Shown one piece after another: positions 1 to 33,551 of a DNA stretch of 34,489 nt. Location of the stretch: IMG/VR virus record IMGVR_UViG_2541047695_000003, one strand, 5' to 3'. The notes beneath the pieces were generated by a model that saw nothing but the letters and a program-made list of their open reading frames with translations, did no database searches and was not told the origin of the DNA. The position numbers and the translations under genes were made by a program. Source of the stretch: a virus. Its lineage: Duplodnaviria; Heunggongvirae; Uroviricota; Caudoviricetes. Position 1 is the stretch's first letter. The number at the start of each line of letters is the position of its first letter.

Positions 1-100
1 AAATTAGATACTAAATATATACGTGAAGGATGTTGAGCTGGTCAACGTCTACGGGGGAGAACATCCCCCGCTAACCTTTTTCTTATTTGAGGATTTACCT

Positions 101-202
101 ATGGTTGAATTTTTGATTTATCTGGCTGTAGGATTAACTATCGTATATTCACTGGCACATATTGGCATTTCTACTTTGTGTAACGCTTTCAAGTATCATT
201 AA
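101..202 (+). CDS. Small hydrophobic peptide (33 aa, MVEFLIYLAVGLTIVYSLAHIGISTLCNAFKYH), hypothetical
   Basis: ATG at 101 preceded by GAGGA Shine-Dalgarno (91-95); uninterrupted to TAA at 200-202; predicted single TM helix. Below the 60-aa cutoff of the ORF track. Confidence 0.25.
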   Translation: MVEFLIYLAVGLTIVYSLAHIGISTLCNAFKYH

Positions 203-255
203 TTAAATCGATGAATTGAACTATAGATGATGGTCGTTTTCAAAGAGGATTATCT

Positions 256-429
256 ATGGATCTTTTTGTCTACTTTGCTACTCTGCTGTTTTTGACTATC
301 GTCGCTGGCATTAAATTGATTTTTATATCGCTGGTGGTATTTTTCAAATTTCTAATCGGTACGCCTTACGGCTGGGTATGTTTAATCCTGTTTATTCTTT
401 TTAGTTGCTGTAAATCAGACACTAAATAA
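256..429 (+). CDS. Small membrane protein (57 aa, two hydrophobic segments), hypothetical
   Basis: ATG at 256 preceded by AGAGGA SD; ORF runs to TAA 427-429; strongly hydrophobic product MDLFVYFATLLFLTIVAGIKLIFISLVVFF...; followed by two + strand terminators. Confidence 0.3.
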   Translation: MDLFVYFATLLFLTIVAGIKLIFISLVVFFKFLIGTPYGWVCLILFILFSCCKSDTK

Positions 430-588
430 TATTGTAATCTGCCTTTTCTCCTTATGTGGTTTTAACAGGGAATTTTCGAAAGAGAGTTCCCGATTAAAAG
501 CCATTAAAACACACTCCAGTACAGTGTTTTCATAGTCAGTGATCTATACAACACAAAAACATAACAAGTATAGATTGAGTATTAATCC

Positions 589-616
589 TCCCGCCCCGAA
601 GGGGGCGGTTATTTTT
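589..616 (+). terminator. Rho-independent terminator (hairpin CCGCCCC-GAAG-GGGGCGG plus T-run)
   Basis: 7-bp GC stem 591-597/602-608 followed by TTATTTTT. Confidence 0.55.
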
Positions 617-693
617 CTGGCTTTAAAGAATAATGTAGCATTATGTTCATTATAACCTCATCTTTGTTGTGCAAACCTAACCTAAACTTACTA

Positions 694-717
694 GGGACTC
701 TTCGGAGTCCCTTTTTT
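694..717 (+). terminator. Rho-independent terminator (GGGACTC-TTCG-GAGTCCC plus TTTTTT), possibly bidirectional
   Basis: Perfect 7-bp stem with UUCG loop and T6 on + strand; A-rich on the other side; overlaps the stop codon of the minus-strand gene 716-1660. Confidence 0.5.
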
Positions 718-1660
718 ATTGGCAGTAAGAAAAGTTAGTACCGTACATTTCATCATGAAGCATTGCAACATTGCGTTTCTGTTCTTCTTCCTCGTCTACC
801 GCATCACTAGAAAAATGAGATTTGCCCTTAAAAGAACGAAGCAATTGCAGTGCAGCCATCGGATCACGCATCACATCGATTTTCACTTCTACTTCATCAT
901 TTGCGGCCTCATCAGCCGCATTTTCAACTACTGCCACCGGAGCAACTTCTTTAGCTTTCAGTTCTTCAATCTCAGCTTTCTGTGCTTCGATGATCTGGTC
1001 TTTTTCTTTCAGTGCAGCTTTCAGTTCTGCGATCTGTGCTTCCAGTGCAGAGAAACGATCTTCAACAGCAACCGGAGAAACAGCATTAACCTGTGCTTCC
1101 AGTTCTACGAAAGCGTCGCAAGATTCAATACGTGCTTTTTCTTCACCTTCATATGCAACCAGTTCTACTACTTCTTTCTCAGTAGCGTGGCTGTTAAAGA
1201 ATACAGCAAAGTAAGGATTGCCGGATTTGGTGAAGTTCAGTTTAGCTTTTCCGGTAACTTCTTTACGACGACCAAAGGTAATGTTGCAATCAGCGGTATC
1301 CTGAAAATCCATGTTAGGAGCGGAAACGATAGCAGTATCACCAGCAATCACTAGGTGGAACAGTTCAGAAGAGTTCTTAACGGTGAAAGTAACGATGTGG
1401 TCTACTGCAACGTCTTTAGCAGGTTTAACGCGGTCGATTGCTTTACGAATGCCGTTAGGCAGTTTACCGTCAACACCAAAGCCAGCCGCGATCAGTGCTT
1501 CACGATGTGCTTTAAAGCCAGCGAAAGCGGATTTCTGCTGCGCAAAGGAAACATGAGCAACAACTTTCGGCTGAATCTTCTTGTTTGCTTCGGTGCCAAA
1601 TTTGATAACTGCTTTAGCGTTGGTTACTTCGTTAGTGAAAAAGTTAGCGGAAAATAACAT
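716..1660 (-). CDS. Hypothetical early protein (314 aa): globular N-terminal region, central coiled-coil, acidic C-terminal tail
   Basis: Long ORF with diverse composition; AGGAG SD 9 nt upstream of ATG (1660); the + strand overlapping ORFs are low-complexity Phe/Ser-rich artefacts. Function not recognised. Confidence 0.75.
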   Translation of the reverse strand: MLFSANFFTNEVTNAKAVIKFGTEANKKIQPKVVAHVSFAQQKSAFAGFKAHREALIAAGFGVDGKLPNGIRKAIDRVKPAKDVAVDHIVTFTVKNSSELFHLVIAGDTAIVSAPNMDFQDTADCNITFGRRKEVTGKAKLNFTKSGNPYFAVFFNSHATEKEVVELVAYEGEEKARIESCDAFVELEAQVNAVSPVAVEDRFSALEAQIAELKAALKEKDQIIEAQKAEIEELKAKEVAPVAVVENAADEAANDEVEVKIDVMRDPMAALQLLRSFKGKSHFSSDAVDEEEEQKRNVAMLHDEMYGTNFSYCQ

Positions 1661-1704
1661 TATAAATACTCCTGTGGAAAGTTAGTTTTAATTGTTCATT
1701 TCAA

Positions 1705-1742
1705 GCCTCCTTTGCTGCAACAAGGGAGGCTTTTTCTTTTTT
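1705..1742 (+). terminator. Hairpin plus T-run (GCCTCCTTTG...CAAGGGAGGC TTTTTCTTTTTT) between two minus-strand genes
   Basis: 10-bp stem (1 mismatch) followed by T-run on the + strand; on the minus-strand RNA the same hairpin lies in the intergenic leader of gene 716-1660 and contains an AGGAGG sequence. Confidence 0.4.
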
Positions 1743-1774
1743 AAAGCCATCATATAATTCTCAGTGAAAGTGGA

Positions 1775-1954
1775 TTAACAAACTTGAACGTTAATCTTTA
1801 CCTGAATTTCGTATTTCTTCATTAGCTTGTAGAATCCGCTTCTATCAATTCCTTCCTTCTTAAAGAAGTTTTCCCCGCCTCGCTCAGTGTCGCTGTAAAA
1901 GCGTTTAGCAATATCAACAATCATTTCACGAGTGAACTTAACAGGTCTAGCCAT
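1775..1954 (-). CDS. Small HTH DNA-binding protein (59 aa, MARPVKFTREMIVDIAKRFY...GIDRSGFYKLMKKYEI), paralog family A
   Basis: ATG at 1954 (minus) with GAGGA SD 8 nt upstream (the track ORF starts at an upstream TTG, 1969). Shares the RPxxF...DIA...GI...FYKxMKK motif with 5372-5599 and the C-terminus of 5634-6239. Confidence 0.6.
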   Translation of the reverse strand: MARPVKFTREMIVDIAKRFYSDTERGGENFFKKEGIDRSGFYKLMKKYEIQVKINVQVC

Positions 1955-2053
1955 AAGTAGATTCCTCAAATGTGGATTAATAAGGACAATAAAAAGAGCT
2001 TTTCGCCCTCGATACTTCTATTTATAAAAGTCATTTCAGAAAACCCTGCAAAA

Positions 2054-2075
2054 CCACTGTGTATCTGATCAGTGG
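2054..2075. repeat. Inverted-repeat site CCACTG-N10-CAGTGG (operator-like)
   Basis: Perfect 6-bp arms; a near-identical copy lies at 2139-2160; adjacent to a candidate leftward promoter (-35 TTGCAG 2050-2045). Confidence 0.4.
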
Positions 2076-2138
2076 GAGCACGAATTGCTAAAGAGAAGAT
2101 TAATTATTAATCAATTCGTACAATATTCAACCGAAAAA

Positions 2139-2177
2139 GCACTGTATATCTAACCAGTGCTGTATGAATTAGCAGTG
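2139..2177. repeat. Inverted-repeat site GCACTG-N10-CAGTGC followed by a third CAGTG half-site
   Basis: GCACTGTATATCTAACCAGTGC (2139-2160), then CAGTG again at 2173-2177; direct repeat of the 2054-2075 element (CACTGT-TATCT-A-CAGTG core). Confidence 0.4.
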
Positions 2178-2296
2178 AATCAGGAGATTTTCAGAAGTGA
2201 ACAATCATTTCACACATGTATTTATAACGTGGAAATTCTTGCTTATCATCTATATGGGGACTGTTTAGAAAATTTCAACCCCCACCAGTGAGAAAA

Positions 2297-2325
2297 AGTA
2301 TAAAATAATCCTTGACAGTTGTCAA
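2297..2325 (-). promoter_or_regulatory. Candidate sigma70-type promoter reading leftward (-35 TTGACA, 17-bp spacer, -10 TATACT), overlapping palindrome TTGACAGTTGTCAA
   Basis: Minus-strand TTGACA at 2325-2320 and TATACT at 2302-2297 with exact 17-nt spacing; the perfect 14-bp palindrome 2312-2325 could also be an operator. Confidence 0.4.
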
Positions 2326-2519
2326 TGCACTTGACCTAAGCGAGAAATGACTATCAAAATTTTTGTTTGAAAATGGTAGATCAGGATTATCAACCTTTAT
2401 AACCTATTATAGCGCGGAGACCTTTTGACAATTCTTTTTAAATCATTAACTTACGCCACTTTTTGGTGATTTTTTGATTAAATAATATACAAGAATTTTC
2501 TATCAAAATATTTGATGGG

Positions 2520-2770
2520 AATTGCCCCTGAAATTCTGAATTTTTGCCCCCGAATAAAATCCCCAAGATTCTACTATCCCATTTTTGCCCCTGAAACCTA
2601 CTATTTTTGCCCCTGAAATTCTGGGAAACAGTGATTTTGCCCCTCATTTTTGCCCCTGAAATGCCAATAATTGCCCCTGAAAATCTAATTTTTGCCCCTC
2701 ATTTTTGCCCCTGAAAAGGATTGGTGAGAAAAACCCTTTATAAAACATTAACTTAGCGAGGGGCAAAAGC
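2520..2770. repeat. Iteron-like array: ~9 direct copies of (T)TTTTGCCCCTGAAA (core GCCCCTGAAA / GCCCCTCA) plus one inverted copy (GAGGGGCAAAA)
   Basis: Cores at 2524, 2555 (variant GCCCCCGAAT), 2587, 2609, 2639 (GCCCCTCA), 2652, 2673, 2694 (GCCCCTCA), 2707; inverted copy 2759-2769; irregular spacing of roughly 13-32 bp; no spacer regularity, no coding potential. Confidence 0.75.
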
Positions 2771-2859
2771 GGGGGATCGGGCGTGCATAGATATTATATA
2801 ACACATTCGCTACGCTCATGTGTAAAACTAAAAACAACAAATAACCAAAAAGATAATTA

Positions 2860-2878
2860 GGAGGGCGTAGCCCGACTG
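2860..2878. repeat. Direct repeat copy 1: GGAGGGCGTAGCCCGACTG (contains GGGC-N3-GCCC mini-hairpin)
   Basis: 16/19 identical to copy at 3291-3309; the two copies bracket ~430 bp of repeat-rich non-coding DNA. Confidence 0.5.
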
Positions 2879-3055
2879 CGCGAAGCGCTAACCAATTACT
2901 TCTAGTAACAACTAATTTAAACTAGATGATACTAGATGGTCTTAGAAGGAATTAACTAGTTTGCTCGCTCGCTTCGCTCACTCTCAAACGTCTGCGACGC
3001 CACTGCGTGGCATCGAGAATCACTTCTGAAAGGATTTTCTCGAAAGGGATTTAAT

Positions 3056-3142
3056 ACTAGTTACTAACTGATTCTAGAAAGATAGTAATAATCACTTTGA
3101 AGATAATAGTAGTTAACTGGTTACTAGATGATTCTAGATCAC
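3056..3142. repeat. Tandem imperfect repeats of a TTACTA(A/G)(C/A)TGATTCTAGA-containing unit (about 60-bp period); related ACTAGATGATACTAGATGG at 2921-2940
   Basis: TTACTAACTGATTCTAGAAA (3061-3080) vs TTACTAGATGATTCTAGATC (3121-3140), 17/20 identical; each followed by CACTTT(G/A)A. Confidence 0.45.
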
Positions 3143-3167
3143 TTTAATGATCATGAAAGGTATTGGT

Positions 3168-3196
3168 ATCCCTTCGGGATTGCAACCTTCGGTTGC
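3168..3196 (+). other. Two adjacent GC-stem hairpins with TTC(G) loops (ATCCC-TTC-GGGAT; GCAACC-TTC-GGTTGC), no T-run
   Basis: Back-to-back stable stem-loops seen directly in the sequence; not followed by a U-run, so not a canonical terminator. Confidence 0.3.
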
Positions 3197-3290
3197 TAAA
3201 TTGCTTCCTGATTATTATTTCTCCAAAAGAAAGATTATTATATTCTAAAGATACTTCTTCGTTTTGATCATAATTTAATCAAATCATGAA

Positions 3291-3309
3291 GGAGGGCTTT
3301 GCCCGACTG
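3291..3309. repeat. Direct repeat copy 2: GGAGGGCTTTGCCCGACTG
   Basis: See copy 1 at 2860-2878. Confidence 0.5.
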
Positions 3310-3398
3310 AATACAATCACCTTTCATAATAACAAGAATTTTCTCTTTATAAATAATAGTGAACTTACTTGATTCACTTTCTTTTAGAGGATACCACT

Positions 3399-3848
3399 AT
3401 GATCAATACTAAAACTCCTTTCGTACTTCTGGGTCTGGACTCTGAAAACTATGGTAACTTCCATATGCTAGAAGTTTTCGCTCATCGTGGTTATAACATC
3501 ATTCGTCATTCCGAAGACTCCAACTACTCAACTGCTTTCTACGCTTTAAAACGAAATGGTCGTCCTACTGTGATCATCGACTGTTTTACTGATGAGGGTC
3601 GTCTTCAATACAACGATATTCCAGCAATTATTGTTCGTGATGATCTGCCGTTTCAAGTCCGTTCCGGTGACATTGACCTGGGTAGCTTCTTGACTCTTCG
3701 TGAACTGGATGAAGCAATGTTTAATTACGGTAAAGAAACCGCTCAGGAAGCCCCAGAACAAGATGAGGAAGACGAAGACTACGCACCAATCGCTTTCTCT
3801 TCTCACGGTGGCTTCTACGGTTACGACGAAGGCTTAGATATGCTGTAA
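3399..3848 (+). CDS. Hypothetical early protein (149 aa) with strongly acidic C-terminal tail
   Basis: ATG at 3399 (MINTKTPFVLLG...) with GAGGA SD; the track ORF starts 10 codons earlier without an RBS. C-terminus EAPEQDEEDEDYAPIAF... is acidic. Confidence 0.7.
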   Translation: MINTKTPFVLLGLDSENYGNFHMLEVFAHRGYNIIRHSEDSNYSTAFYALKRNGRPTVIIDCFTDEGRLQYNDIPAIIVRDDLPFQVRSGDIDLGSFLTLRELDEAMFNYGKETAQEAPEQDEEDEDYAPIAFSSHGGFYGYDEGLDML

Positions 3849-3883
3849 GTTAGGTCAACCCTTTGGCATCTTGTCAAGGGGTA

Positions 3884-3912
3884 TTGACAAAAATTTCTGA
3901 CTTTTTTATGAT
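3884..3912 (+). promoter_or_regulatory. Candidate sigma70 promoter (-35 TTGACA 3884-3889, 17-bp spacer, -10 TATGAT 3907-3912); -35 embedded in inverted repeat TTGTCAAGGGGTATTGACAA (3871-3890)
   Basis: Consensus -35 and near-consensus -10 with 17-nt spacing about 55 nt upstream of the 3969 start codon; a second TTGACA lies at 3921-3926. Confidence 0.5.
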
Positions 3913-3968
3913 TATCGAACTTGACAACTTTGAACCTATTTGACCTAGATTTGTAAAGAGGATGTAAC

Positions 3969-4301
3969 ATGAAAGAATTTACCATCACTAAATCCCTGTA
4001 TGACTGGACTGTTAAAATCTCCGGCAAAACCGTTTCTGTAACCCCTAGCCATGTAGAAAATGATTGGGGCGTATCCCGTGAAACTATCTCCCGTAGTATG
4101 CATGTTCCGTTTGATCTGATGACCTTAACTGGTATTCATGCAATGCTGGAAGTTCGCGAGCAATTCGAAGCTGGTAATCACAATGCAACTCCAGTTAGCA
4201 ATCACCTTCTTACTAATGAAGAACGTGAAATCATCGAAAACTGGCGTTATGAATATGCGATTCCTTATTATGAAGAAGACCAAGTAGAAATCGATTGGTG
4301 A
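3969..4301 (+). CDS. Hypothetical protein (110 aa)
   Basis: ATG with AGAGGA SD 7 nt upstream; promoter candidate immediately upstream; no recognisable motif. Confidence 0.75.
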   Translation: MKEFTITKSLYDWTVKISGKTVSVTPSHVENDWGVSRETISRSMHVPFDLMTLTGIHAMLEVREQFEAGNHNATPVSNHLLTNEEREIIENWRYEYAIPYYEEDQVEIDW

Positions 4302-4389
4302 TAAATTTCTATTATAAATAAAATTGTTCCGGTTGAGATGCCGGAACTAGGAGGATCAATCACTAAACCGTTTAAGGGGAATTAATACT

Positions 4390-5196
4390 ATGAATACTGT
4401 TACCGTTATGAATACTGCTAAAACTGCTTCCGTGTCTCTGGTTGTTGATAACACCAAACCGCTGACCATGTCTTCCCGTCAGATCGCTGAATTTACCGGA
4501 AAGAAACACTTTCACGTAAAACGCGACATTCGCGAAATGCTGATTACCTTAGAATTAGATGAATCCAAATTTGGATGCATCTTTTTTGACCAATATGGAC
4601 GCGAGCAAACAGAATATCACTTGAATGAAGAACTGACTCTGACTCTTGTCACTGGTTACAATATCCAGATGCGAAACGCGGTTATTCAGGAATGGAAGCG
4701 ACTGAAAGAAGAAAATGAAAAACTTCGCTCTACTCCGGTTAACCCGTATGCAGACTTTGAAGAAACAGACTGGATCGAACTGGCATTAAAGAAAACTCGC
4801 GAAAATAAAAAGCTGATTGAACTTCATGTTCGCAAATCCGTAGATAGCCATTCAATGACGCGTCTGTTAGGCGCTAAAAAGGGCGCTACGAAGGTTAAAG
4901 AAGCACTGACGGCCTTACGTACTGCTGGATACATCGAGCGCGTCTATGATGAAAATAACAAGCCGTGTGGGTATGTTGCTAATGATTCTTCTCTCTCTTT
5001 CTGCCGCATGAATGCTCACTACCAACTTGAGTTTACTGTTGATGTGCTTCCGGTGCTGGTTGAATTGGGTGTTTTGGAAGAAGAACAAAAAGCAACTCTG
5101 AATCTTCCTAAGCCGAACAACACTATTCTGATTCAAAATAAAGCGGCTGAACGTCTCCGTCAGAATGTTGGATCACTGGAAGTCTTCGGACTGTAA
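4390..5196 (+). CDS. Rha-family phage regulatory protein / antirepressor-like (268 aa)
   Basis: N-terminal SRQIAEFTGKKHFHVKRDIREML matches the conserved Rha-domain signature (HxxVxRDI) as I recall it; AAGGGG SD; followed by a strong terminator. Confidence 0.75.
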   Translation: MNTVTVMNTAKTASVSLVVDNTKPLTMSSRQIAEFTGKKHFHVKRDIREMLITLELDESKFGCIFFDQYGREQTEYHLNEELTLTLVTGYNIQMRNAVIQEWKRLKEENEKLRSTPVNPYADFEETDWIELALKKTRENKKLIELHVRKSVDSHSMTRLLGAKKGATKVKEALTALRTAGYIERVYDENNKPCGYVANDSSLSFCRMNAHYQLEFTVDVLPVLVELGVLEEEQKATLNLPKPNNTILIQNKAAERLRQNVGSLEVFGL

Positions 5197-5202
5197 TTAA
5201 TC

Positions 5203-5236
5203 GCCCGGCGCATAATTGCGCTGGGCTTTTTGTTTT
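5203..5236 (+). terminator. Rho-independent terminator (GCCCGGCGC-ATAATT-GCGCTGGGC plus TTTTTGTTTTT)
   Basis: 9-bp stem with one G-U pair followed by a T-run directly after the 4390-5196 stop. Confidence 0.7.
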
Positions 5237-5330
5237 TATAGATAACAGCATTTTTGCTGGCATCTATAGATCAGTCCAGATTTGGACTCAACTTAGAAAT
5301 GAGCGCAGTTTTGCGCCGATTGTTTTACAT

Positions 5331-5356
5331 ACAAAAAAGCCACTCCGAAGAGTGGC
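5331..5356 (-). terminator. Rho-independent terminator for the leftward operon (GCCACTC-TTCG-GAGTGGC plus U-run on minus strand)
   Basis: Perfect 7-bp stem 5339-5345/5350-5356; A6 on + strand (5333-5338) gives a U-run after the hairpin on the minus transcript; 15 nt beyond the stop of 5372-5599. Confidence 0.6.
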
Positions 5357-5371
5357 AAAGAGAATCAAAAC

Positions 5372-5599
5372 TCAAAAACCTGTTGCTTCTACGATCTGAC
5401 CATCACCGATCTGAACATAGAATTTAATGTCTAACTTCTTCATATTCTTATAGAATTGGGCAATTGAAATCCCATGTTCACTAAGAATCTGTTCTTTCGC
5501 TTCCTTACCACGATCCGCTGTATAATAAGCGTAGGCAATATCAGCCATTTGTTCAGCGTTAAAACGGGCAGGACGACCGCGAGTAGCTTTAGTAGTCAT
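5372..5599 (-). CDS. Small HTH DNA-binding protein (75 aa, MTTKATRGRPARFNAEQMADIAYAY...GISIAQFYKNMKKL), paralog family A; resembles terminase-small-subunit / AlpA-type N-terminal HTH
   Basis: Second in-frame ATG (5599) has GGAGAA SD at 6-nt spacing; the first ATG (5605) abuts the SD. GRP-x-RF...DIA...GIS..FYK.MKK motif shared with 1775-1954. Confidence 0.6.
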   Translation of the reverse strand: MTTKATRGRPARFNAEQMADIAYAYYTADRGKEAKEQILSEHGISIAQFYKNMKKLDIKFYVQIGDGQIVEATGF

Positions 5600-5633
5600 A
5601 GTCATTTCTCCAAATTAAAGTGAATGTTCACTT

Positions 5634-6239
5634 TTATTTAGAGGACTTACATTTTATCGGAAAAAGTTCTCCATCGTCAATACTCATAAAGAACTCTGCC
5701 TTAATCCCGTACTTCTTCAACCGTGAATAGTATGTACCCCGACTTATATCAACCTTGCGCAGCACTTCAAAGAACCCTTTAGGATCGTTGTAATAGTGGC
5801 TGTATCGCACGTTAGCGAGTTCTACAAACAATTCCCTTGTATCACCATAGCCTTTCTTGAAAGCCTCGTTACGATAGCGTGTAATAGCGTGATTCAATCT
5901 CTTCTGTTTCAACACTTCTCGGATCGGCTTCCACTGCAACCTATAGATAGGACCGTCATCAATGCGATAATAACGCTTGATATCAAAATCAAACCAATCT
6001 CGGACTCGCTGAAACTCTGTCTGTGAGGTGCGATACTTCTTAAAGAAGTTATGAATATCGGTATACCCATGATCACGATACAACTCGATTAAAATCTGTT
6101 TAGCTTCCTCACGACTAAAGCCAGATGTTGTGTAATCAGTCTTCTTGTGATGGTGCTTAACTGGCAAACGATATTCATGATCGGTACAACAAGAAAAGGC
6201 TAATTCTACTTCATCTCTTTGTTGCTGATTAATTAGCAT
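5634..6239 (-). CDS. Hypothetical protein (201 aa) with C-terminal HTH-like segment ([16 protein letters not shown]) related to paralog family A
   Basis: AGGGGG SD 5 nt upstream of ATG 6239; divergent from the terminase gene; function unknown. Confidence 0.7.
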
Positions 6240-6326
6240 ACAACCCCCTTAAATATTAATACCCGTATTTATCAAAATATCAACAATTTAATAAATACCT
6301 TCATATTTCGTAATGAGGGTAATTAC

Positions 6327-8234
6327 ATGAAACTAATTTCTAATAAGGCCAAATTAAAAAAGATTCTCAGAAATGCAGCCAAATATATTACGCCACCGCC
6401 TAAACTCCTTCCATCGGAATGGTGCGAAGCTAATATGGTGCTGGTAGATGGTCCTCAAGCTGGGGATAAAGTTAAATTGCTGTCATTCCAGAAAGGTATG
6501 ATTGATGCTCCTTTCCTTGAGAACAAGAAAAAGTATGTTCTGATGACCAGTGCGCAGATCGGAAAGACTACCATCCTGAACGGCATCCTGTTTAACCAGA
6601 TGGCTAACGATCCATGCAATATGATTATCGGACAATCAACCGCTAAAGAAATGTCTCAATATCTCGCTGGTAAGATCCGACCGTCTATCGAAGCATGTGA
6701 TGCATTAAAAGACGTGGTTACAGACAAGAATGATCGCAATGCGGTTAACAACAATAACCAACTCCAGCTAAAAACGAATCACTTCCTGTACATGGTATCG
6801 CTTACCAGTCCATCAACCCTGCGCGGTAAGACTGCAAAGGTCGGACTACTAGACGAAATCGATGCTGCTACAGCCTCAGAAGAAGGTGATCCGGTGGCAC
6901 TGGCTGCTAACCGTTTAACTACCTTTGGCGATGAAGGCCGATTAGTCGTATCCAGTACCCCGACCAGTAAGCTCGGAAGCATTAACCAGCAATGGTTATC
7001 AAGCGATATGCGTATGTTTTTTGTTCCGTGTCCTCATTGCGGGGAACACCAGGTGATCGAGTGGGAAAACGTTCAATTTGAATGGCGTAACATCGATGGT
7101 AAGAACTTACCCGATCCTGATACCGCTCGTTATATTTGCCCCCACTGTAAGAACGCATGGACAGAAGGGGAACGAATCAGGGCAGTAGCGCAAGGCGAGT
7201 GGAGAGCAACCCGTGAAAGTGAAGTAGCAGGATTCTGGATTAGCCGTCTGTATTCACCTTTCAGCACGATCCGCGCTTGTGTGGTTGATTTTAGTCATGC
7301 GTGGCAATCCTTTGATTTACAATCATTTTATAACACCGTGTTAGGCAAGGTATACGATGATCAGGACACGGCAGTAGAAGCAAATGAACTGGAACAACTC
7401 AAAACAGATGTTTCTATCGAGAATATCCCTGATGACGTGATTTTCTTGTGCTCAGGAATTGACCAGCAATTGGATCGCGCAGAATCTACCATCTTAGGTG
7501 TAGCGAAAGATAAGGTTTACATTCTGGATCACCGTAGCTTTTACGATCATAACTGTGAACGATACGAATCACCTGTATGGGATCGTCTGGTTAACTTCAA
7601 GAAAACCAAATTCTATAACGTTAATGGTGAACGTGTGCCAATGCTCGCCAGCTTCCTCGATACATCAAACGGTCGATTCACTCAAGCCGGATACCGTATT
7701 TGTGGTAAGTGGAAGAACCTACACGCTATTAAAGGTAGTTCATCTGGTAATGCTCCAGTGATTCCGGTTAAACCTACCCGCACAGGTGGTCATGAATTGC
7801 TTATGCTGGGCGTTAACGTTGGTAAATCCGCTGTTCGTGAAATGCTGGTTAGAAACCTGAAAGATAATCCTCATATTGGCTTAGAAATATCAGAAACCGT
7901 TCCTGATGATTATCTCGATCAGCTTTTGAGTGAATCCATCAAGCGTACTACTACTGGTGTTCGTTGGGTGAAAAATCCAGGTAGTACCCGAAACGAGGCT
8001 CTCGACTGTCTGGTTTATAGCTATGCTGCTTCTCGCTACGTCCTTTCAAAAATGTCATGGGATAAACTCATTGCAATGAAAGACAGCTTAAACAGCGTTA
8101 AAGAAGAACCCGTAAAAGCTCCTGAATCGCAATCTGACGAGCAAATCGAAGAAACTAAGCCAATCACACGACCGCAACGTCAAAACATCGCCAGACGCCC
8201 AAATAGAGGCCGTAGCTGGGTAACATCGTTCTAA
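6327..8234 (+). CDS. Terminase large subunit, lambda gpA family (635 aa)
   Basis: By recall of lambda gpA: matching N-terminal EW-x-ANxxL...FQ segment, Walker-A-like SAQIGKT, CPHCGE...YICPHC zinc-ribbon-like pair, and C-terminal RNEALDC(L/F)VY motif; GAGGG SD; first gene of the long rightward structural operon. Confidence 0.9.
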
Positions 8235-8240
8235 TAACTC

Positions 8241-8262
8241 GCCGTCCTTCGGGGCGGCTTAC
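8241..8262 (+). terminator. Hairpin GCCGTCC-TTCG-GGGCGGC after terminase gene (weak or attenuating terminator)
   Basis: 7-bp stem with UUCG loop; downstream only moderately T-rich, so termination is probably partial. Confidence 0.3.
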
Positions 8263-8306
8263 TCCTAAATATTGTTAATCCAATAACAATTAAATAAGGG
8301 GTAATT

Positions 8307-8804
8307 ATGAGTTTAGAACTAATTCCCTTAGTAATTCGTAAAGGCGAAAAAATCACGCTGGCGAATGAAGAGGGTGTAACAATTCAGGTAGGAAATAATA
8401 ATAAAGGTATCATTTATCAGGTTGATGATACTCCGGCTAATCACGAGATTAAAACCTTAGATTTTGCCGAAGGTAAATATACCATCGTAATAACTTTGGA
8501 AGAAGAACTGATATCAATGCAGGAATTAACTGTTTTACCAGTATTCGCCAAACAATCCAAAAAAGAATATCTGCGGGAAACTATCGCCTTAATCGAGCAA
8601 GTTATTTTCGCCCGTTTATCTGGGGACGAAGCCGCATTATCAGCAATGACAGTGAAAGGGAATACTTTCGCCTATGAGTCATTGGCTGTTCTCCAGACTC
8701 TAAAAGTCGATTATGAACGTCAACTGTCTAAATTAATTCAAGCCGAACGACGTAAACAGGGAATTAGCCCGATTAAAAATATCAAATTACGTCTTACGCG
8801 ATAA
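8307..8804 (+). CDS. Hypothetical protein (165 aa) between terminase and portal
   Basis: AAGGGG SD; position corresponds to small head-completion or joining genes in lambdoid head modules, but no motif recognised. Confidence 0.65.
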   Translation: MSLELIPLVIRKGEKITLANEEGVTIQVGNNNKGIIYQVDDTPANHEIKTLDFAEGKYTIVITLEEELISMQELTVLPVFAKQSKKEYLRETIALIEQVIFARLSGDEAALSAMTVKGNTFAYESLAVLQTLKVDYERQLSKLIQAERRKQGISPIKNIKLRLTR

Positions 8805-8814
8805 GGGGTAAATC

Positions 8815-10326
8815 ATGTTTAATCTTTTTCGACGCAAAAAGGCGGTAGAAACTCCAGTTAAAACTAATCACCGCCAGCAACAACCAAAAATTTTCATCGA
8901 TAAGCAAGTAGAAAAATTCCAGAAATCTCTGGCGACTCGTAGTTTAGGACTGGTTGGTGATCGTATTGATGGATCACTTCAACAAGACACCATTACAGGA
9001 ACCTTCAATAAGGCTCTCAAATCGAATGGTAAGCGCCTTTATGATCAGGGTCGTACTCTGGCCTTAAACACTTCCGTAGGCAGTCGCTACACGCAATACA
9101 TCACCGATATGGTGGTAGGTACTGGCCTAGATCCGAAGCCGTCAGTTGTTAAACCAAATGGAAAACTTGATAGCGCACTGAATAAGCAGATCGAGAATGC
9201 TTTCTGGAAGTGGGCGCAGAATGCTAAACGCTTCTCTCGCAATGGTCGTTTTAACTTCCGTGAATTGCTGGTAATGGCTGAACGTGAGCGCGTTATGGGT
9301 GGTGAGTGTTTCATCGTTTTAACTAAAGAAAACAATGAGTTAAATGTTTCTATCCTGTCTGCTGATAAATGCGACTGGTCGCTAAACCGTGAAATAAGCA
9401 AAGAGCGTGCGATATATCAAGGTGTGGAGTATGACGTAGAGACGATGAAGCCCGTAGCATACTGGTTTCGTAAAATCAACCTACTGACTCAGACCTACAC
9501 TGGTGATAACTATCGCGTCGATGCTTCGCAAGTATGCCATTATTATCAACCACTTGCGGCTGAATCCCTGCGTGGTGTGACTGACTTCCTGCCAGTGATT
9601 AAGGATATCGCACATCAAGACGCATTCCGCGAAACTGCGATCGTCCAGAAACGTATTGCGGCTAGTTCTATGGGCTTTATCGAACGTCCGAAAGATTCTG
9701 GTGACGATTTTGATACTGGTGAAGAGGATGAACAATATCAAGCGCCGGAAGTAGTACAGGATTTTGCACCTGGTACTATTCAGGAATTACCGGAAGGGGC
9801 AACGATCAAGAGCATCCAGGCGACGCAAAGCGGTGATGATTTCAAATCCTTTAACGATGCGATGTATGGTAGCGTCGCGATGGGCTTAGGCGTGTTTAAA
9901 CAGGGCTTGACTGGTGACACTAGCCAAATAAATTACAGCGCCAGTAGATTCGGTGATTTAATGCAACGACACCGCGTTAAAGCACTGCAAAACAAATTGA
10001 TTGAAACAGTGGTATTGCCAATTTTCGAAGCATATCTACGCCATTATTCCGCGCGTGGTATTGTTCCGATTCGTATTACTGCAATTCCGCATATTATCGA
10101 TAACACTACTATTATTCGTCCTCGTTTTGAATCCGTCGATCCATTTAAAGACGTAAGCGCCGAGATTGCTTTAATTGATAACGGACTTAAATCACGTACT
10201 GCCGTTATTCTTGAACGTGGTGATGATCCTGAAAAAGTATTCTCAGAGATTCAAGCCGAAAAGAGCGCACTAAATATTATCGTTAATGGCGAGGGTGAAG
10301 AAAAAAATTCCCCAGCCGATCCCTAA
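8815..10326 (+). CDS. Portal protein (503 aa), putative
   Basis: Size and position immediately downstream of terminase large subunit and upstream of protease/capsid; AAGGGG SD. Assignment is by synteny; not verified by homology. Confidence 0.7.
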   Translation: MFNLFRRKKAVETPVKTNHRQQQPKIFIDKQVEKFQKSLATRSLGLVGDRIDGSLQQDTITGTFNKALKSNGKRLYDQGRTLALNTSVGSRYTQYITDMVVGTGLDPKPSVVKPNGKLDSALNKQIENAFWKWAQNAKRFSRNGRFNFRELLVMAERERVMGGECFIVLTKENNELNVSILSADKCDWSLNREISKERAIYQGVEYDVETMKPVAYWFRKINLLTQTYTGDNYRVDASQVCHYYQPLAAESLRGVTDFLPVIKDIAHQDAFRETAIVQKRIAASSMGFIERPKDSGDDFDTGEEDEQYQAPEVVQDFAPGTIQELPEGATIKSIQATQSGDDFKSFNDAMYGSVAMGLGVFKQGLTGDTSQINYSASRFGDLMQRHRVKALQNKLIETVVLPIFEAYLRHYSARGIVPIRITAIPHIIDNTTIIRPRFESVDPFKDVSAEIALIDNGLKSRTAVILERGDDPEKVFSEIQAEKSALNIIVNGEGEEKNSPADP

Positions 10327-10371
10327 TAACCAACGGGGGCGCAATGTCCCCAATTAATTAAAGGTGATTAA

Positions 10372-12372
10372 ATGCTTAAATTTCGCCGCGATCTTAACGG
10401 TTACGGTGGAGTTATTAACGAAGGGCATAACGATCAATACGAATTTGAAATTGCTTTCTCCAGTGAACAGCCGTATCAGCGCCAATTCTGGGATGAGCAA
10501 AATCAAGAGATGGTGGTACTAGATGAAATTCTGGTACATACACCGGAAGCGGTTGATCTGTCTCGTCTGAATAATAACGCTCCGTTGCTGTTCAATCATA
10601 ATTTCGATAATCATTTAGGTGTAGTCTGCGACGCTCGAATCGATGCGGATAACGTAGGTCGTGCTCTGGTTAAATTCTCTAAGCATGGCACTTTGGCTAA
10701 TGATATTCGCAATAAAGTCATTGAAGGTACGATGGAAAAAATTTCTGTCGGCTATGACATTAAAGAATATCACATCGATTACGCCAAAGGGCAATTGATT
10801 GTTACTAAGTGGGCGCCCTATGAACTCTCATTTGTCACCGTTCCTGCTGACGATACGGTCGGTTTAAATCGCTCTCTAAATACTATCACAGTTAATTTGG
10901 AGGCTAAACGCGATATGACTAAAGAACAAATTGAAGAAATCAAAGAAGAACAAGAATCCGCTCAGGTTGAAGAAACTCCGGTAGAAGAAATTAAAGAATC
11001 GGAAGTTGAAGAAACTCAAGAGCGCCAAGTTGAAGAGAATAAAGAAGATGAAAATCTCGAAGACGGAAAAGACGCTGAACATCCTGAAAGTGTTGATGAT
11101 GATAGTTCAACTGTTCGGGAAGAAGAAATAAAAGAAGAACGTGAAGCTGCTCCGGTTGAAGAAGAAAAAATCGAAGAAGTGGCTGAACGTTCCGAAGAAG
11201 ACGAATTAGAAATTCGCGAAATTGCACGCGAACTAAATATTGATGACGAAGAATTGAAACGCGCATTGGCAATTAAAGACATGACGCCGGAAGCATTCCG
11301 CACTAAGGCACTAAATAATCTCGTCAATGCTCAACGTAATAACGAACAAATTAAGGACTCTAAAATGGAAAAAACTTTTGACCTGAACAACGTAATTCGC
11401 TCTCTGGTAGATGGTGCTGCTCTGGGTGCTAACGAAGCTGAATATTCCTCTATGGCTGCTGGTGCTGCGATGCAGCGTGGTCGTGCTGCTCGTGGTGGCT
11501 CTGTATTCGTTCCGGCTGCTGCTCTGCGTGCTGCTGCTGATGGTAACACCAAAACTACTCTGACCGCTGTAACTGACGAAAAACTGATGACTGAATCCTA
11601 CATCGAAATGCTGATGCCGGAATCTGTTCTGGGTCGTCTGGGTGTGACTGTTTACAGTGGCTTGAACTCCCCGACCGCTATTCCAAAAATGACCGCTTCC
11701 AGCGTTGACGCTTTCGGCTTCGTTGATGAAAACGGTGCTGCACCGGAAAGCAAAGCTGAATTTGCGAACGTGAAACTGTCTCCGAAAACTTTTGCTGGTG
11801 GCAACCCGATCAGCCGTCAGTCGCTGAAAACCGTTCCGGGCATCGCTACCCTGATCACTGATCACATTAACAAAGCTGTTCGTATCAAACTGGAACAACT
11901 GATTCTGTCTGATAAAGAAAATGCTCGTGGTCCGGCTGGTCTGGTTAAGCAACTGGTAGACGCTAGCCGCGTTACCAAGAAAGCTGCTTTCTCTTATAAA
12001 GACTTCCTGAAAGAAATTGCAGCACTGACCGACGCTGGCGTTCCTGCTCAGGCGATCAAGTTTGCAATGAGCGGTGCAACTGCTGCTGAACTGGAATCTA
12101 CCCTGAAAGATAACGGCGTTTCCGGTTATATCATCGAAAACGGCAAACTGGCTGGTTACGAAGTAGTTACTTCTGGCGTTATCCCGGCAGACCACATCGT
12201 TCTGGGTGACTTCTCCGGTATTACTATCGGTGAGTGGGGAGGTCTGGAACTCGACATGGATCTAACTACATATAGGGATCGTGGTGCGGTAGTGCCTCGT
12301 ATCTTTGTAGATTTGGACTACGTTGTAGCACAGCCGGAAGCCCTGAAAGTTCTTCACATCTCCGCTGAATGA
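10372..12372 (+). CDS. Fused prohead protease (HK97-type, S78-like) - acidic scaffold-like linker - major capsid protein (666 aa)
   Basis: N-terminal ~180 aa carry His (LFNHNFDNHLGVV) and Ser (EKISVGYDIKEY) motifs typical of HK97-family prohead proteases; residues ~190-330 are Glu-rich and coiled-coil-like; C-terminal ~330 aa have capsid-like composition (MEKTFDLNNVIRSL...AAGAAMQRGRAARGG...). Strong terminator follows. Confidence 0.85.
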   Translation: MLKFRRDLNGYGGVINEGHNDQYEFEIAFSSEQPYQRQFWDEQNQEMVVLDEILVHTPEAVDLSRLNNNAPLLFNHNFDNHLGVVCDARIDADNVGRALVKFSKHGTLANDIRNKVIEGTMEKISVGYDIKEYHIDYAKGQLIVTKWAPYELSFVTVPADDTVGLNRSLNTITVNLEAKRDMTKEQIEEIKEEQESAQVEETPVEEIKESEVEETQERQVEENKEDENLEDGKDAEHPESVDDDSSTVREEEIKEEREAAPVEEEKIEEVAERSEEDELEIREIARELNIDDEELKRALAIKDMTPEAFRTKALNNLVNAQRNNEQIKDSKMEKTFDLNNVIRSLVDGAALGANEAEYSSMAAGAAMQRGRAARGGSVFVPAAALRAAADGNTKTTLTAVTDEKLMTESYIEMLMPESVLGRLGVTVYSGLNSPTAIPKMTASSVDAFGFVDENGAAPESKAEFANVKLSPKTFAGGNPISRQSLKTVPGIATLITDHINKAVRIKLEQLILSDKENARGPAGLVKQLVDASRVTKKAAFSYKDFLKEIAALTDAGVPAQAIKFAMSGATAAELESTLKDNGVSGYIIENGKLAGYEVVTSGVIPADHIVLGDFSGITIGEWGGLELDMDLTTYRDRGAVVPRIFVDLDYVVAQPEALKVLHISAE

Positions 12373-13273: not shown

Positions 13274-14107
13274 ATGAATATTACACAAGATAACTTAGAC
13301 ATTTTCACGGGGTCACATGTTGAAGTCTCCGTGTCTACTATGGTGGATAACCAGCCGGACTTTTTCGATCCTGCATTTAGTCCTATCGAGAACATCGCAG
13401 CATTCCCGACGATAACCGAATCCACAGAGATCCAGACGTTAGAAGAGTATGATCAGGACGCTACGGGGAAACTTGCTGGTTATCGTAAACTTGAATCAAC
13501 TACGTTAGTAGTAAACCGTGTTCTGGATGACGAACATCAAGACATGTTGATGAAAGCGGTGAATGATAAAACTCCTTTACGCTTTCGTATGTTCTATGTT
13601 GTGAACTCTGGCTATAGTGCTGCTAACACAGGTTACTACGTCATTTTTGACGCTTATGTCTCGTCACATAAAACAAAATCCGGTGATAACAAAGTTACTA
13701 CAATCGAGTTTAAATTAGAACCTGATGGCGGGATTCTAGATCGCGGTATTGCTACCGAAGGCCGGATCTTACGTCAAGGTGATTTTGGTTTGGGCGCTGG
13801 TGTACATCCATTCACAGGTCCGATTGATAGCGAAGCATTAGCCGGAAACCGTTTCGTAACTTATCAGGGATCGAGCGTATCTAATCCATTTAGTGCTGAT
13901 ACTTCACTAATTCACGTTCAACCTAATGAAGATGGTGGATGGCAATTAACTTGCACCGCTTCCGGCGCACCACGTTTACGAGTTCGCACAGTCCAGAAAG
14001 ACGGTAATTCTGGATGGGTGAAAGTGTATTCCACAGAAGAAAAACCGACACCAGCCGAGATTGAAGCCGTTTCTATCCATGACCGGATCGACTTCGGGGA
14101 ATACTGA
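13274..14107 (+). CDS. Tail-tube-like protein, long paralog (277 aa) with C-terminal extension
   Basis: N-terminal ~160 aa align by eye with ORF 18705-19175 (DIF(T/S)G...I-x3-AAFP...H-x2-(L/M)-x-KA...DG); C-terminal part carries a KPTPAEI motif identical to one inside the tail fibre (14181-17705). Confidence 0.65.
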   Translation: MNITQDNLDIFTGSHVEVSVSTMVDNQPDFFDPAFSPIENIAAFPTITESTEIQTLEEYDQDATGKLAGYRKLESTTLVVNRVLDDEHQDMLMKAVNDKTPLRFRMFYVVNSGYSAANTGYYVIFDAYVSSHKTKSGDNKVTTIEFKLEPDGGILDRGIATEGRILRQGDFGLGAGVHPFTGPIDSEALAGNRFVTYQGSSVSNPFSADTSLIHVQPNEDGGWQLTCTASGAPRLRVRTVQKDGNSGWVKVYSTEEKPTPAEIEAVSIHDRIDFGEY

Positions 14108-14133
14108 TTGCTTCTCTAAATAAAACATGACGC

Positions 14134-14165
14134 GGGAGGTTAACGCCTCCCTTATTCCTGTTTTA
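14134..14165 (+). terminator. Hairpin GGGAGG-TTAACG-CCTCCC followed by T-rich tract
   Basis: 6-bp GC stem followed by TTATTCCTGTTTTAT; lies between the tube-like gene and the fibre gene. Confidence 0.4.
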
Positions 14166-14180
14166 TAGTGAGGTGATTCG

Positions 14181-17100
14181 ATGCAGTCGATCCAATTTAA
14201 ACGAACAAATGTTTCTGGCAAAAAACCAACGCCGGAACAATTACAGGTCGGTGAGGTAGCAATCAACCTTAAAGACCATGTTATTTTTACCAAAGACCGA
14301 GATCATGAAGTAGTTCAAATCTCTGTTTCTCCTGAAACTCACGCGGCACTAGAATCTAAAGTTGATGCTAATAAAAAAGAACTGGATAGCACAATTGCAG
14401 TAAATGACCGCAATATTCACGCTAAAGTAGATGAAATTAAACAAACTACTGATGCAACCATCGCAGCAAATCACGCAGAAATTAACAATAAAGTTGATGT
14501 AATTAAACGCGAAACCGACGCGACAATCGAGGCCAATAAAAATAAAGCTGCTTCCGATCTTGCTGGTGTTAAAGCTGAATTGTCGGATACCATCAACGCT
14601 AATAAAAATGCGGCTGCTGTAGCAACTCAGGAACTGGACACCCGCATCAATAAAAAAGTTGATGATATTAAATCCCGTACCGATGCAACCATCGCAAGCA
14701 ATGACAAAGCAATCAATGACAAAGTTGATTTGATTAAGGCAGAAACTGACCGCACTATCGCAGCAAATCACGCCTATGCGGAAAATCAGTTAACTGACAC
14801 CTACAATAACCTTACTGGTGTGATTGCAGCCAATAAGCAAGAGGCAGCGGATAACGTCGCAGCATTAACCCGTGATGTTGAAGCCAAAAATACAGCAATT
14901 CATAGCAAAGTTGACAATAACAAGTCTTACACTGATTCTGAATTGGCACGTTTAGAAAGCCGTATTGATGCAGCCGATGGATCTGCTGATGGCAAGTACA
15001 TCAAAAAACACGTAAACACTTATACTGATGGTTATTTGCTGTCTAAGACCGCAAACTATTTTGATGATCCAAATGCGCGTAATCTTGATTACTTTGGTGC
15101 ATTCCGCATGAATGACCTGGCGGGTCATATTGCAATGATCTTGCATGTTCCGCATCCATCTGGTGTTAATCATGCTCGTGGCTTCGAGTTCACTTATGGG
15201 TCTAATCCACATGCTACTGTAAGAACATACGGCTATGATGAATTGGGACATTTGGCATATTCTCACCGCATGTATCATGAAGGTGATAAACCTACTCCGG
15301 CTGAAATTGGCGCATATTCGAAAGCAGAAATTGACCGACTGTTCCAGAAGACGCTTAATTTTGGTATCGAGGGTGGTTGGTTTAAACTAGGCACTTTGAC
15401 AATGCCACAACAACACGGTCGCACGGCTAAGATCCGTTTGGTTGGTGGTAACGGTTATAACGTAGGACATAATGGACAAGCCAATATTATCGAATTGGTG
15501 ATTCGATGCGGCAACAATAGCCCGAAAGGTGTTGTATTCAATGCGTATTATACTATTTGGCATCATGAACAACATTTTTGCGCTATTCCAACCGATGGCG
15601 ACAATTACGATCTTTACGCTTACTACGGTGCACATACAGGATTTGTTTTAGCAGAATATCAAGTTTCTTCCGGTGGTGTTTCTTTAAACCTGTTGGATAC
15701 TCCTGAATATCTGGGTGGTGAAAAACCTGTTGCAGATGAAATTTTTGATGCTCTTAACATTTCATCGTTCAATAACTTTAGCAACCGTGGGACGTTAAAT
15801 TTTGCTGGCAATCATCAAGGCCAATATGATATTGAGCATTTAAACGAACAACCGACAAATGCTAAAAAGATGTTGCGTCGCTTCCGTAGTTGTGCACCAG
15901 CTACAATCTGGCATGAGACAGTTGATGATAACGCATATCGTCTTGCTACTGGATACGAAGATACAAATCAGGAATTATTGCTGTCAGCAACATCCGGGTT
16001 ACATGTCAAGAAATTAACATTGGATGGCGGTGTTACTGGAAATTCTGGTATTGATATTCGTCGAGGACCAAACGAATCAAGCCATTTTAATTTCATGGAT
16101 TATCGCACTGGACAAGATGTTCGTAATGGCTGGTTTGGCTTCGGTGATGGTCAGACCAAAGATTTTATTTGGTGGAACGATAACGGTCAAAACTCTATAA
16201 ACCTGATTGAAGATGGTGAATTGCATATTACTGGCGGTAAAGGCCAGAAAATTGTAATGAATAGCGAAGTTGCATTATCTGAAAATGCTCGTTTGGCTGT
16301 CAAAGGTGGTAACTATGGTTTAATCCTTCGTAATGATGGTTCTAGCTTCCATATTCTTACTACCGATTTAAAAGATTCCTTTGGGACGTGGAACACTCGT
16401 AGACCATTTAGTTATGATTTCGCCGAAGGTGGATTAGATCTAGGTGGCACAGCTACCGCACGCTGTTTACATCTGGGAATTGATGGTAGCACCCGCATCG
16501 AAGATAATATGGTGTTTAGATCAGGGTCTCGTCAGTCAATGGACTATATTGAATTAATCCATTGGGGTAACAGTAATACCGCTCGTAACAACGTTTTGAG
16601 TATGAAAGACTCGAAAGGATTCCTTGCTGAATTTGAACGCGTGGGGGGTACTAACGGCGTTAAAACCAGATTCTTTGGCGAAACATTCACTGACGGTACA
16701 TTATACCTAAATCAGATGAATAATAGCTCTGAACGATTCTCTATCAATAACTGGGGAAATTCAGAAGTTGGTCGCGCGGCAGTGATGGAAGTCGGTGATT
16801 CCAAAGGTTATCACTTCTATACTGAACGTAGGACAGATAACAGTTTGATGTTTGATGTTGCTGGCGCTTTTACTGTGCATGGACCTTCCGGGATTACTAT
16901 CAAAAACTCTGCTGGTGCTCGCCACGTCTGGTTTAGAGATGATAGCGATACGGAAAAGGCTGTTATCTGGGCTACAGATGAGGGTATTTTACATATTCGC
17001 AATAACCACGGTGGACAATTTACACATCACTTCCAGGGCGCGATGATTAAACTGGAAGGGCGTGTTCCTTATGCCGCAGATCAAGGACTTATCCGTGGTG

Positions 17101-30225: not shown

Positions 30226-30271
30226 TTCTTATAAATAGTAGTGAATATTATTTTATTGAGGATTCACTACT

Positions 30272-33023: not shown

Positions 33024-33030
33024 ACCATTT

Positions 33031-33072
33031 CCAAACAAAAACGCCCCTACCGCGTATTATAACGATAGGGGC
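33031..33072 (-). terminator. Hairpin GCCCCTA...TAGGGGC followed by U-rich tract on minus strand
   Basis: 7-bp stem with 16-nt loop; minus-strand downstream GTTTTTGTTTGG; sits between 33087-33506 and the recombinase start and overlaps the alternative TTG start. Confidence 0.4.
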
Positions 33073-33506: not shown

Positions 33507-33551
33507 AGTAGAATTTCCTCTTGTTATTTGAATTACGATATATTTATATCG

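Follow-up and report, generated by a model that had tools for sequence, protein, structure and literature searches.

The closest described relatives of the domain considered here are the homeodomain-like helix-turn-helix (HTH) domains of IS3 OrfA (HTH_Tnp_1, HTH_23, and HTH_28) and of the C-terminal region of Hin, Gin, and resolvase (HTH_7), which are three-helix bundles with a GRP-type N-terminal arm and the helix-3 pattern G-I-S-x-x-T/Q-F/L-Y-K/R. HTHs of a similar kind also open many small terminase subunits (TerS). We analyzed three small proteins, P1, P2, and P3, encoded on the minus strand of a 34,489-nucleotide stretch of DNA from a virus of the Caudoviricetes (IMG/VR record IMGVR_UViG_2541047695_000003; the whole stretch is called the window below). 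All three share this bundle and the helix-3 pattern, and P1 and P2 also have the arm. A sequence-only reading had described them as three paralogs and had likened them to the N-terminal HTH of TerS and to AlpA/Xis-type regulators, suggesting that one of them may be the missing TerS. The firm part of our analysis is that these genes carry four copies of a predicted DNA-binding HTH domain. They represent an unannotated HTH family of an ordinary kind, and are most likely the phage's own gene regulators rather than its missing packaging subunit. The genes and domain copies are as follows.

1775-1954, minus strand: P1, 59 amino acids (aa), a single domain with an MARPVKF arm, three helices, and a short beta segment
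5372-5599, minus strand: P2, 75 aa, a single domain with an RGRPARF arm, helices at residues 15-27, 32-41, and 46-55, and a beta-hairpin at 61-71
5634-6239, minus strand: P3, 201 aa, two domain copies in tandem with a low-confidence linker between them (residues ~101-133); one more helix precedes them at the N-terminus (residues 5-17)
5940-6134, minus strand: N-terminal copy of P3 (P3N), residues ~36-100, without the RP arm; modeled helices at 43-57, 62-67, and 73-83, strands at 87-93 and 98-100
5655-5855, minus strand: C-terminal copy of P3 (P3C), residues ~129-195, holding the 16-residue motif segment; modeled helices at 135-148, 153-162, and 167-176, strand at 181-187

RefSeq carries identical coding sequences for the three genes, and each protein has full-length homologs in Escherichia coli, Salmonella, and Proteus (for P1, 25 homologs of 59-60 aa). 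For P2, a start at the 5605 ATG is less likely because its homologs are 72-75 aa long and a GGAG lies 9 nt upstream of the 5599 ATG. In BLASTP, with each E-value coming from a single pairwise comparison, P1 aligned with P2 over 57 residues (35% identity, E=7e-10), with residues 134-187 of P3 (E=8e-6), and with residues 41-88 of P3 (E=0.017); P2 aligned with residues 36-98 of P3 (E=0.002). We then compared profiles with hhalign, using four families built from database homologs with P3 split into halves. The P values were 5.5e-11 for P1-P2, 1e-9 for P1-P3N, 1.2e-9 for P1-P3C, 9.5e-8 for P2-P3C, 8.6e-7 for P2-P3N, and 1.7e-5 for P3N-P3C. All six pairs are therefore related, and chance similarity is ruled out. 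The paralogy claimed in the sequence-only reading is thus borne out by the alignment statistics that it had called for, the open reading frames (ORFs) lie where it had placed them, and its motif elements (RP-x-(K/R)-F, DIA, GI(S/D), FYK, and MKK) are all present. A fourth copy had escaped it: P3 is a tandem duplication, with one domain in its N-terminal half as well. All 30 P1/P2 homologs keep the RP-x-(K/R)-F arm without change, and both P3 domains lack it. In our reading, P1, P2, and P3 form a lineage-specific family that arose by gene duplication and by tandem domain duplication within P3.

Structure prediction with AlphaFold2 (AF2) from family alignments gave a mean predicted local distance difference test (pLDDT) score of 81.6 for P2 and 75.5 for P3, with a predicted template modeling (pTM) score of 0.65 for P3. 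Every modeled copy consists of three helices followed by a beta-hairpin. As in homeodomain-like proteins, the helices form a bundle in which helices 2 and 3 make up the HTH, and in P1 and P2 a basic N-terminal arm (GRP in Hin) precedes helix 1. The P1/P2 profile aligned in register with the Hin DNA-binding domain from GRP through helix 3 (hhalign P=0.0026). A P1+P2 profile searched against 1.84 billion representative proteins found only 13 proteins; those outside the family include several long proteins of 4-7 repeats that score strongly for HTH_23, HTH_7, HTH_28, and HTH_Tnp_1. No member of the three families reached a curated threshold in Pfam, PHROGs, or NCBIfam, no significant match to the family was found in PDB or BFVD, and nothing in BFVD corresponds to P3 in structure. 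In fold and profile the family comes closest to the homeodomain-like HTHs of Hin/resolvase and IS3 transposases, and the proteins make up a new narrow family inside the resolvase/transposase class of tri-helical HTHs, with a hairpin added. The supposed likeness to AlpA/Xis did not hold up: PF05930 and PF12728 (MerR-like winged HTH; HTH_17) had no match at E<=1 in 65 members, the domain is instead Hin/IS3-OrfA-like with an RP arm, and the integrase of this phage is a large serine recombinase, not a tyrosine integrase, adjoined by none of the three genes.

The window covers most of a ~35-kb prophage with 41% G+C. Its DNA between 1600 and 6400 has chromosomal matches (85-97% identity) in 58 of 5426 complete E. 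coli genomes, and related prophages are also present in Salmonella and Proteus. In E. coli strain PE15, the element splits hicB, fragments of which lie at both borders. Besides genes for a portal, a protease-capsid fusion, tail, and lysis, the prophage has the following features.

31344-33038, minus strand: large serine recombinase/integrase with Resolvase, Recombinase, and Zn_ribbon_recom domains
6327-8234, plus strand: gpA-type large terminase (TerL)
4390-5196, plus strand: Rha-like protein
5339-5356, minus strand: terminator-like hairpin directly past the P2 stop codon

Across about 38 loci in three genera the gene order is constant. TerL points one way, and P3 followed by P2 points the other; then come a variable block (Rha and two genes in E. 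coli, other genes in Proteus), ~1.4 kb of noncoding DNA, and P1 followed by a protein of 313-368 aa. Four allele types of P1 and three of P2 are reshuffled among these loci, along with alleles of P3 and TerL, and we used this mosaicism in three tests, on the iterons, the CACTG palindromes, and TerL.

No close cultured phage was found. The top TerL match (43% identity) lies at the start of the record of Escherichia phage DCP80 (PQ671644.1, 141 kb, classed as a T4-like Gaprivervirus), in which positions 1-11611 carry a block of gpA-type terminase, portal, and capsid genes akin to those of this prophage; the record may be a chimeric assembly or a mixed lysate. Two small ORFs lie upstream of TerL in the first 35 kb of this record, the sequenced DNA closest to the prophage, and neither is related to P1, P2, or P3. 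Aligning TerL against one genome per species returned only terminases of 24-31% identity, too distant for positional inference. The PE15 chromosome carries an ISApl1-mcr-1-pap2-ISApl1 transposon within the prophage (record positions 14062-18715), between a 185-aa gene and the gene for the 314-aa protein that follows P1.

We tentatively propose that P1, P2, and P3 are phage-specific transcription regulators, a reading that we would put somewhat short of even. Three considerations favor this role. First, the prophage has no other recognizable regulator: CI/Cro, Q, or any further one was not seen in it, apart from the Rha-like gene, which is missing from some relatives. Second, each paralog heads a transcription unit behind a common promoter-like motif. 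Third, the geometry of the P3/TerL promoters suits late-gene control. In this model the paralogs would be small sequence-specific DNA-binding proteins. By analogy with Hin, the RP arm of P1 and P2 would lie in the minor groove while helix 3 read the major groove. P1 and P2 would act as dimers, perhaps paired through the hairpin, and P3 as a single-chain pseudo-dimer. The target of P3 and P2 would be the region where the P3 and TerL promoters stand back to back, from which they would control the late genes and their own synthesis, and P1 would be the first gene of a leftward unit that also encodes the iteron-linked 314-aa protein. The promoter-like elements on which the second and third considerations rest are listed here.

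1661-1668 (plus), 2019-2026 (minus), 2219-2226 (minus), 3348-3355 (plus), 4313-4320 (plus), 30230-30237 (plus), and 33541-33548 (minus): exact copies of the octamer TATAAATA
6290-6297, plus strand: one-mismatch variant AATAAATA, before TerL
6265-6272, minus strand: one-mismatch variant GATAAATA, before P3
5635-5642, minus strand: one-mismatch variant TCTAAATA, before P2 and overlapping the P3 stop codon
6265-6298: GTATTTAT...ATAAATAC, two inverted arms in the 87 nt between P3 and TerL that form promoter-like elements back to back, one for P3 (minus) and one for TerL (plus), and a candidate operator
5619-5642, minus strand: TCTAAATA-AA-AGTGAACATTCACT over the P3 stop codon, a promoter-like element plus inverted repeat before P2
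3358-3378, 5619-5632, and 30240-30268 (and 2197-2213): AGTGAA...TTCACT repeats
1994-2026, minus strand: TATAAATA (2019-2026) and, between this promoter-like element and the P1 start codon, a small hairpin with a T-run (1994-2010)

The seven exact copies of TATAAATA compare with 2.3 expected, a count reached in none of 100 shuffles, and all seven lie outside protein-coding gene bodies. Five of them face the next gene (P1, a 149-aa gene, Rha, a 332-aa gene, and a 139-aa gene); the copy at 2219 (minus) stands ahead of noncoding sequence, and the one at 1661 (plus) runs antisense over the start codon of the 314-aa gene. The octamer is also enriched in a Proteus relative (10 copies against 2.4 expected). 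Seven of these copies fall within the prophage, where six precede a gene, P3 and P1 included, and one is antisense inside a 318-aa gene. A further motif common to Proteus, TCTAGAAAGGATT, is not enriched in the window. No -35 element is recognizable at the TATAAATA-type sites examined. Between P3 and TerL the two inverted copies are 18 bp apart, and their arms are kept in 38 loci, including Proteus loci in which the spacer differs. The P3 and TerL promoters would overlap back to back, a geometry that suits a switch or autoregulation. The architecture TCTAAATA-AA-AGTGAACATTCACT recurs at 3348-3378 and 30230-30268; more generally, AGTG and an inverted repeat AGTGAA-N(2-17)-TTCACT follow directly on several TATAAATA-type motifs (3 against 0.11 expected), and these repeats could be 5'-terminal mRNA hairpins or variably spaced operator half-sites. 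In Proteus and in the other type of upstream region, the P1 leader hairpin is retained with a stem and loop of different sequence.

About 35 nt past the plus-strand copy of TATAAATA that overlaps the 314-aa start codon, there is a strong terminator-like hairpin (1703-1732), and the region 1661-1745 may give rise to a short RNA from the spacer between this gene and P1. An antisense TATAAATA occupies the equivalent place in Proteus (position 14060 of the relative L004). Upstream of P1, the central noncoding region (2750-3330) is dense in short GC-rich hairpins, two of them with UUCG-type loops (3165-3197), and contains a box GGAGGGC(G/T)T(A/T)GCCCGACTG repeated at 2859 and 3290 as well as ACTAGATGAT(A/T)CTAGAT repeats. 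On its flanks, homologous promoter-like segments face outward (2219-2241 and 3333-3355, 87% complementary). Within it, a 75-nt noncoding element (3209-3283) is 84% identical to one that occurs twice in a single intergenic region of Krischvirus T4-like phages (97.4-97.8 kb in RB49, between ORF164c and ORF165c); 54 phage records match. An Rfam scan of positions 1-6500 found no family.

Two sets of repeats upstream of P1, the iterons and the CACTG sites, had been put forward in the sequence-only reading as sites at which to look for binding by the paralogs. We addressed both by comparison among loci.

716-1660, minus strand: the 314-aa protein whose gene comes next after P1; it has a coiled coil, an acidic tail ending LHDxxYxTNxS, and an N-terminal domain that varies
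2521-2716, plus strand: iteron array, nine copies of (T/A)TTGCCCCTGAAA
12842-13131 in the Proteus relative L004 and 5180-5340 in locus L050: further post-P1 protein/iteron regions, listed with 716-1660 (minus) and 2521-2716 of the window
2054-2075: palindrome CCACTG-N10-CAGTGG, upstream of P1
2138-2161: palindrome AGCACTG-N10-CAGTGCT, upstream of P1

The iterons of the E. coli window are of the TTTGCCCCTGAAA type; Proteus has instead ~16 copies of CTAGGGATG, and some E. coli loci have TAGTGTAGGTTT repeats in place of the window-type iterons. GGGGCAA iterons occur in 17 of 17 loci whose post-P1 protein has the window-type N-domain and in 0 of 16 others, and the iteron type is independent of the P1 allele. 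Since the iteron type tracks the N-domain of the 314-aa protein and not the P1 allele, the iterons are most likely bound by the 314-aa protein, the putative iteron-binding partner in the P1 gene pair, and not by the paralogs. While the iterons change between E. coli and Proteus, P2 and P3 keep the same or similar recognition helices, as does P1 allele B2, which led us to reject the paralogs as iteron binders. Matches to CACTG-N10-CAGTG at up to one mismatch number three in the window, both exact palindromes included, against 0.5 expected. All four P1 alleles (A, B1, B2, and C) occur together with the palindromes, which other B1/B2 loci lack; with no covariation with the P1 allele, we discarded them as a P1-specific operator.

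At least four N-domain types of the post-P1 protein exist. At least three of them are each accompanied by an iteron array of their own, and no array was detected for the fourth. Between E. coli and Proteus, only the coiled coil of this protein is shared. The post-P1 protein may serve in origin binding, at a packaging site, or as a specificity protein of another kind.

Several points weigh against phage-wide regulation by the paralogs. No member reaches a curated HTH threshold, the best Pfam matches being HTH_Tnp_1 (E=0.017, 6/30 members) and HTH_7 (E=0.059, 3/30). In these sequence comparisons no binding site was found, neither the iterons nor the CACTG palindromes covarying with the paralogs. 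No other TerS candidate is recognizable in the prophage, and P3 adjoins TerL in every locus, two observations that speak for a packaging role. Lastly, a P1-like gene is found together with an iteron-linked protein in a T4-like phage, and P1 may serve that module rather than the phage as a whole.

This last point leads to an alternative that we regard as doubtful, in which P1 belongs to a mobile module of three parts, as an accessory subunit or as its autoregulator: a structured noncoding stretch with iterons, P1, and a coiled-coil protein with a variable N-domain. The module would be an origin/initiator-like or other nucleoprotein device, with P2 and P3 as duplicates recruited elsewhere. A 168-kb T4-like metagenomic contig encodes a P1-like protein whose first 10 residues, MARPVKFTRE, are identical to those of P1. 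Ahead of this gene lie 560 nt of noncoding DNA containing GC hairpins and AGCGATTAC repeats, and behind it comes a gene for a 204-aa protein whose identity to the N-domain of the Proteus 318-aa protein is 38% (E=6e-17); P1 therefore travels with an iteron-linked protein as a unit. The post-P1 gene invariably follows P1, the pairing of N-domain types with iterons of their own is as this alternative would have it, and no replication gene is recognizable elsewhere in the prophage. Against it, the allele of P1 is independent of the partner's type at either end, N-domain or C-tail, so a specific protein-protein fit is not evident, and the T4-like module is a single example plus a short duplicate contig. 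A tblastn search of cultured phages and plasmids found no match for P3, the 314-aa protein, or the 204-aa protein, and for P1 only two Acinetobacter phage matches at E=0.8.

It is unlikely that P3, possibly with P2, is instead the small terminase or cos-recognition subunit, whose HTHs would bind cos-proximal sites and recruit the adjacent gpA-type TerL. Like lambda gpNu1, Sf6 gp1, and SPP1 G1P, P3 is a small HTH protein whose gene lies beside TerL, and the promoter-like elements of P3 and TerL are an inverted pair of one 8-mer, which suggests co-regulation. Also in favor of this reading, the two terminase genes of phage P2 (the phage, not the protein) lie in divergent late operons. Unlike those proteins, P3 has neither a profile nor a fold match to TerS: the Pfam, PHROGs, and NCBIfam TerS families are unmatched in 65 members (a lone phrog TerS match had E=0.18 in 1 of 35 members), and no TerS-like structure was found in PDB or BFVD. 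The AF2 monomer of P3 consists of two HTH-plus-hairpin domains and the N-terminal helix, with no central oligomerization helix hairpin or barrel. Transcription of P3-P2 is divergent from TerL rather than upstream and co-oriented with it. Moreover, P3 and P2 alleles reassort freely with TerL types and do not co-evolve with the TerL N-terminus. P3 proteins at 92-96% identity are paired with TerLs only ~53% identical over the N-terminal 120 residues, and P3 proteins at 51% identity with TerLs 98% identical in that region (95% overall). When we looked for alleles that covary with those of TerL, none turned up for P3, P2, or the C-tail of the 314-aa protein. We give this test moderate weight, since the portal also reassorts with TerL in the examined loci.

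The octamer TATAAATA is identical to the core of T4 late promoters, and no gp55 or gp33 homolog was seen in the prophage. From this comes a further possibility, which we think improbable. TATAAATA-NN-AGTG (the T4-late core without a -35 element) would define a private promoter class before most operons, to which P1, P2, and P3 give host RNA polymerase access or which they gate; alternatively, a T4-like phage infecting the cell would read these promoters with its own late-transcription machinery. If the latter were true, the element would be wired to T4-like infection, and the paralogs and the P1-iteron module would have been traded between both phage types.

Finally, serine integrases use recombination directionality factors (RDFs, or excisionases) that are small, diverse, and usually unannotated, and in the circular phage form P1 heads a leftward gene string ending with the integrase at 31344-33038, yet it is highly improbable that one of the paralogs is such a factor, given their genes' separation from the integrase, the absence of similarity to any excisionase or RDF family, and the P1-like gene in a lytic T4-like phage without a nearby integrase.

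We return to P1, P2, and P3 as putative regulators. The HTH family is confined to one Enterobacterales prophage lineage and one T4-like phage contig, and offers a first handle on regulation in a prophage whose early genes are nearly all annotated as "hypothetical protein". The promoter motif and the links to T4-like phages are more unusual than the HTH family itself, whose greater value is as an entry point to a region with swaps of iterons and specificity domains, a T4-late-like promoter motif, and sequence common to T4-like phages. Identifying the late-gene controller and the packaging-site recognizer would make the lineage, one member of which bears a chromosomal mcr-1 transposon, experimentally tractable.

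Set beside known systems, the paralogs differ from Hin and IS3 OrfA in that they are free-standing proteins of 59-201 aa without a catalytic domain, with an added C-terminal beta-hairpin and scores under all Pfam gathering thresholds. With two HTH units in one chain, P3 resembles the tandem homeodomain-like HTH of Cbp2 (PDB 2LVS), which is also the best match of the P1/P2 profile among PDB sequences, a weak one that aligns both repeats and is not significant (E=0.28); Cbp2 differs in being archaeal, of unrelated biology, and without beta-hairpins. The nearest functional analogy, and one of function only, is with Mor and C of phage Mu, two small HTH paralogs that activate promoter classes one after the other. 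They are unrelated in sequence and fold to P1, P2, and P3, for which activation is only putative. What the two phages have in common is a set of paralogous small DNA-binding proteins, predicted as such in the present case, and promoters with a good -10-like element and no -35.

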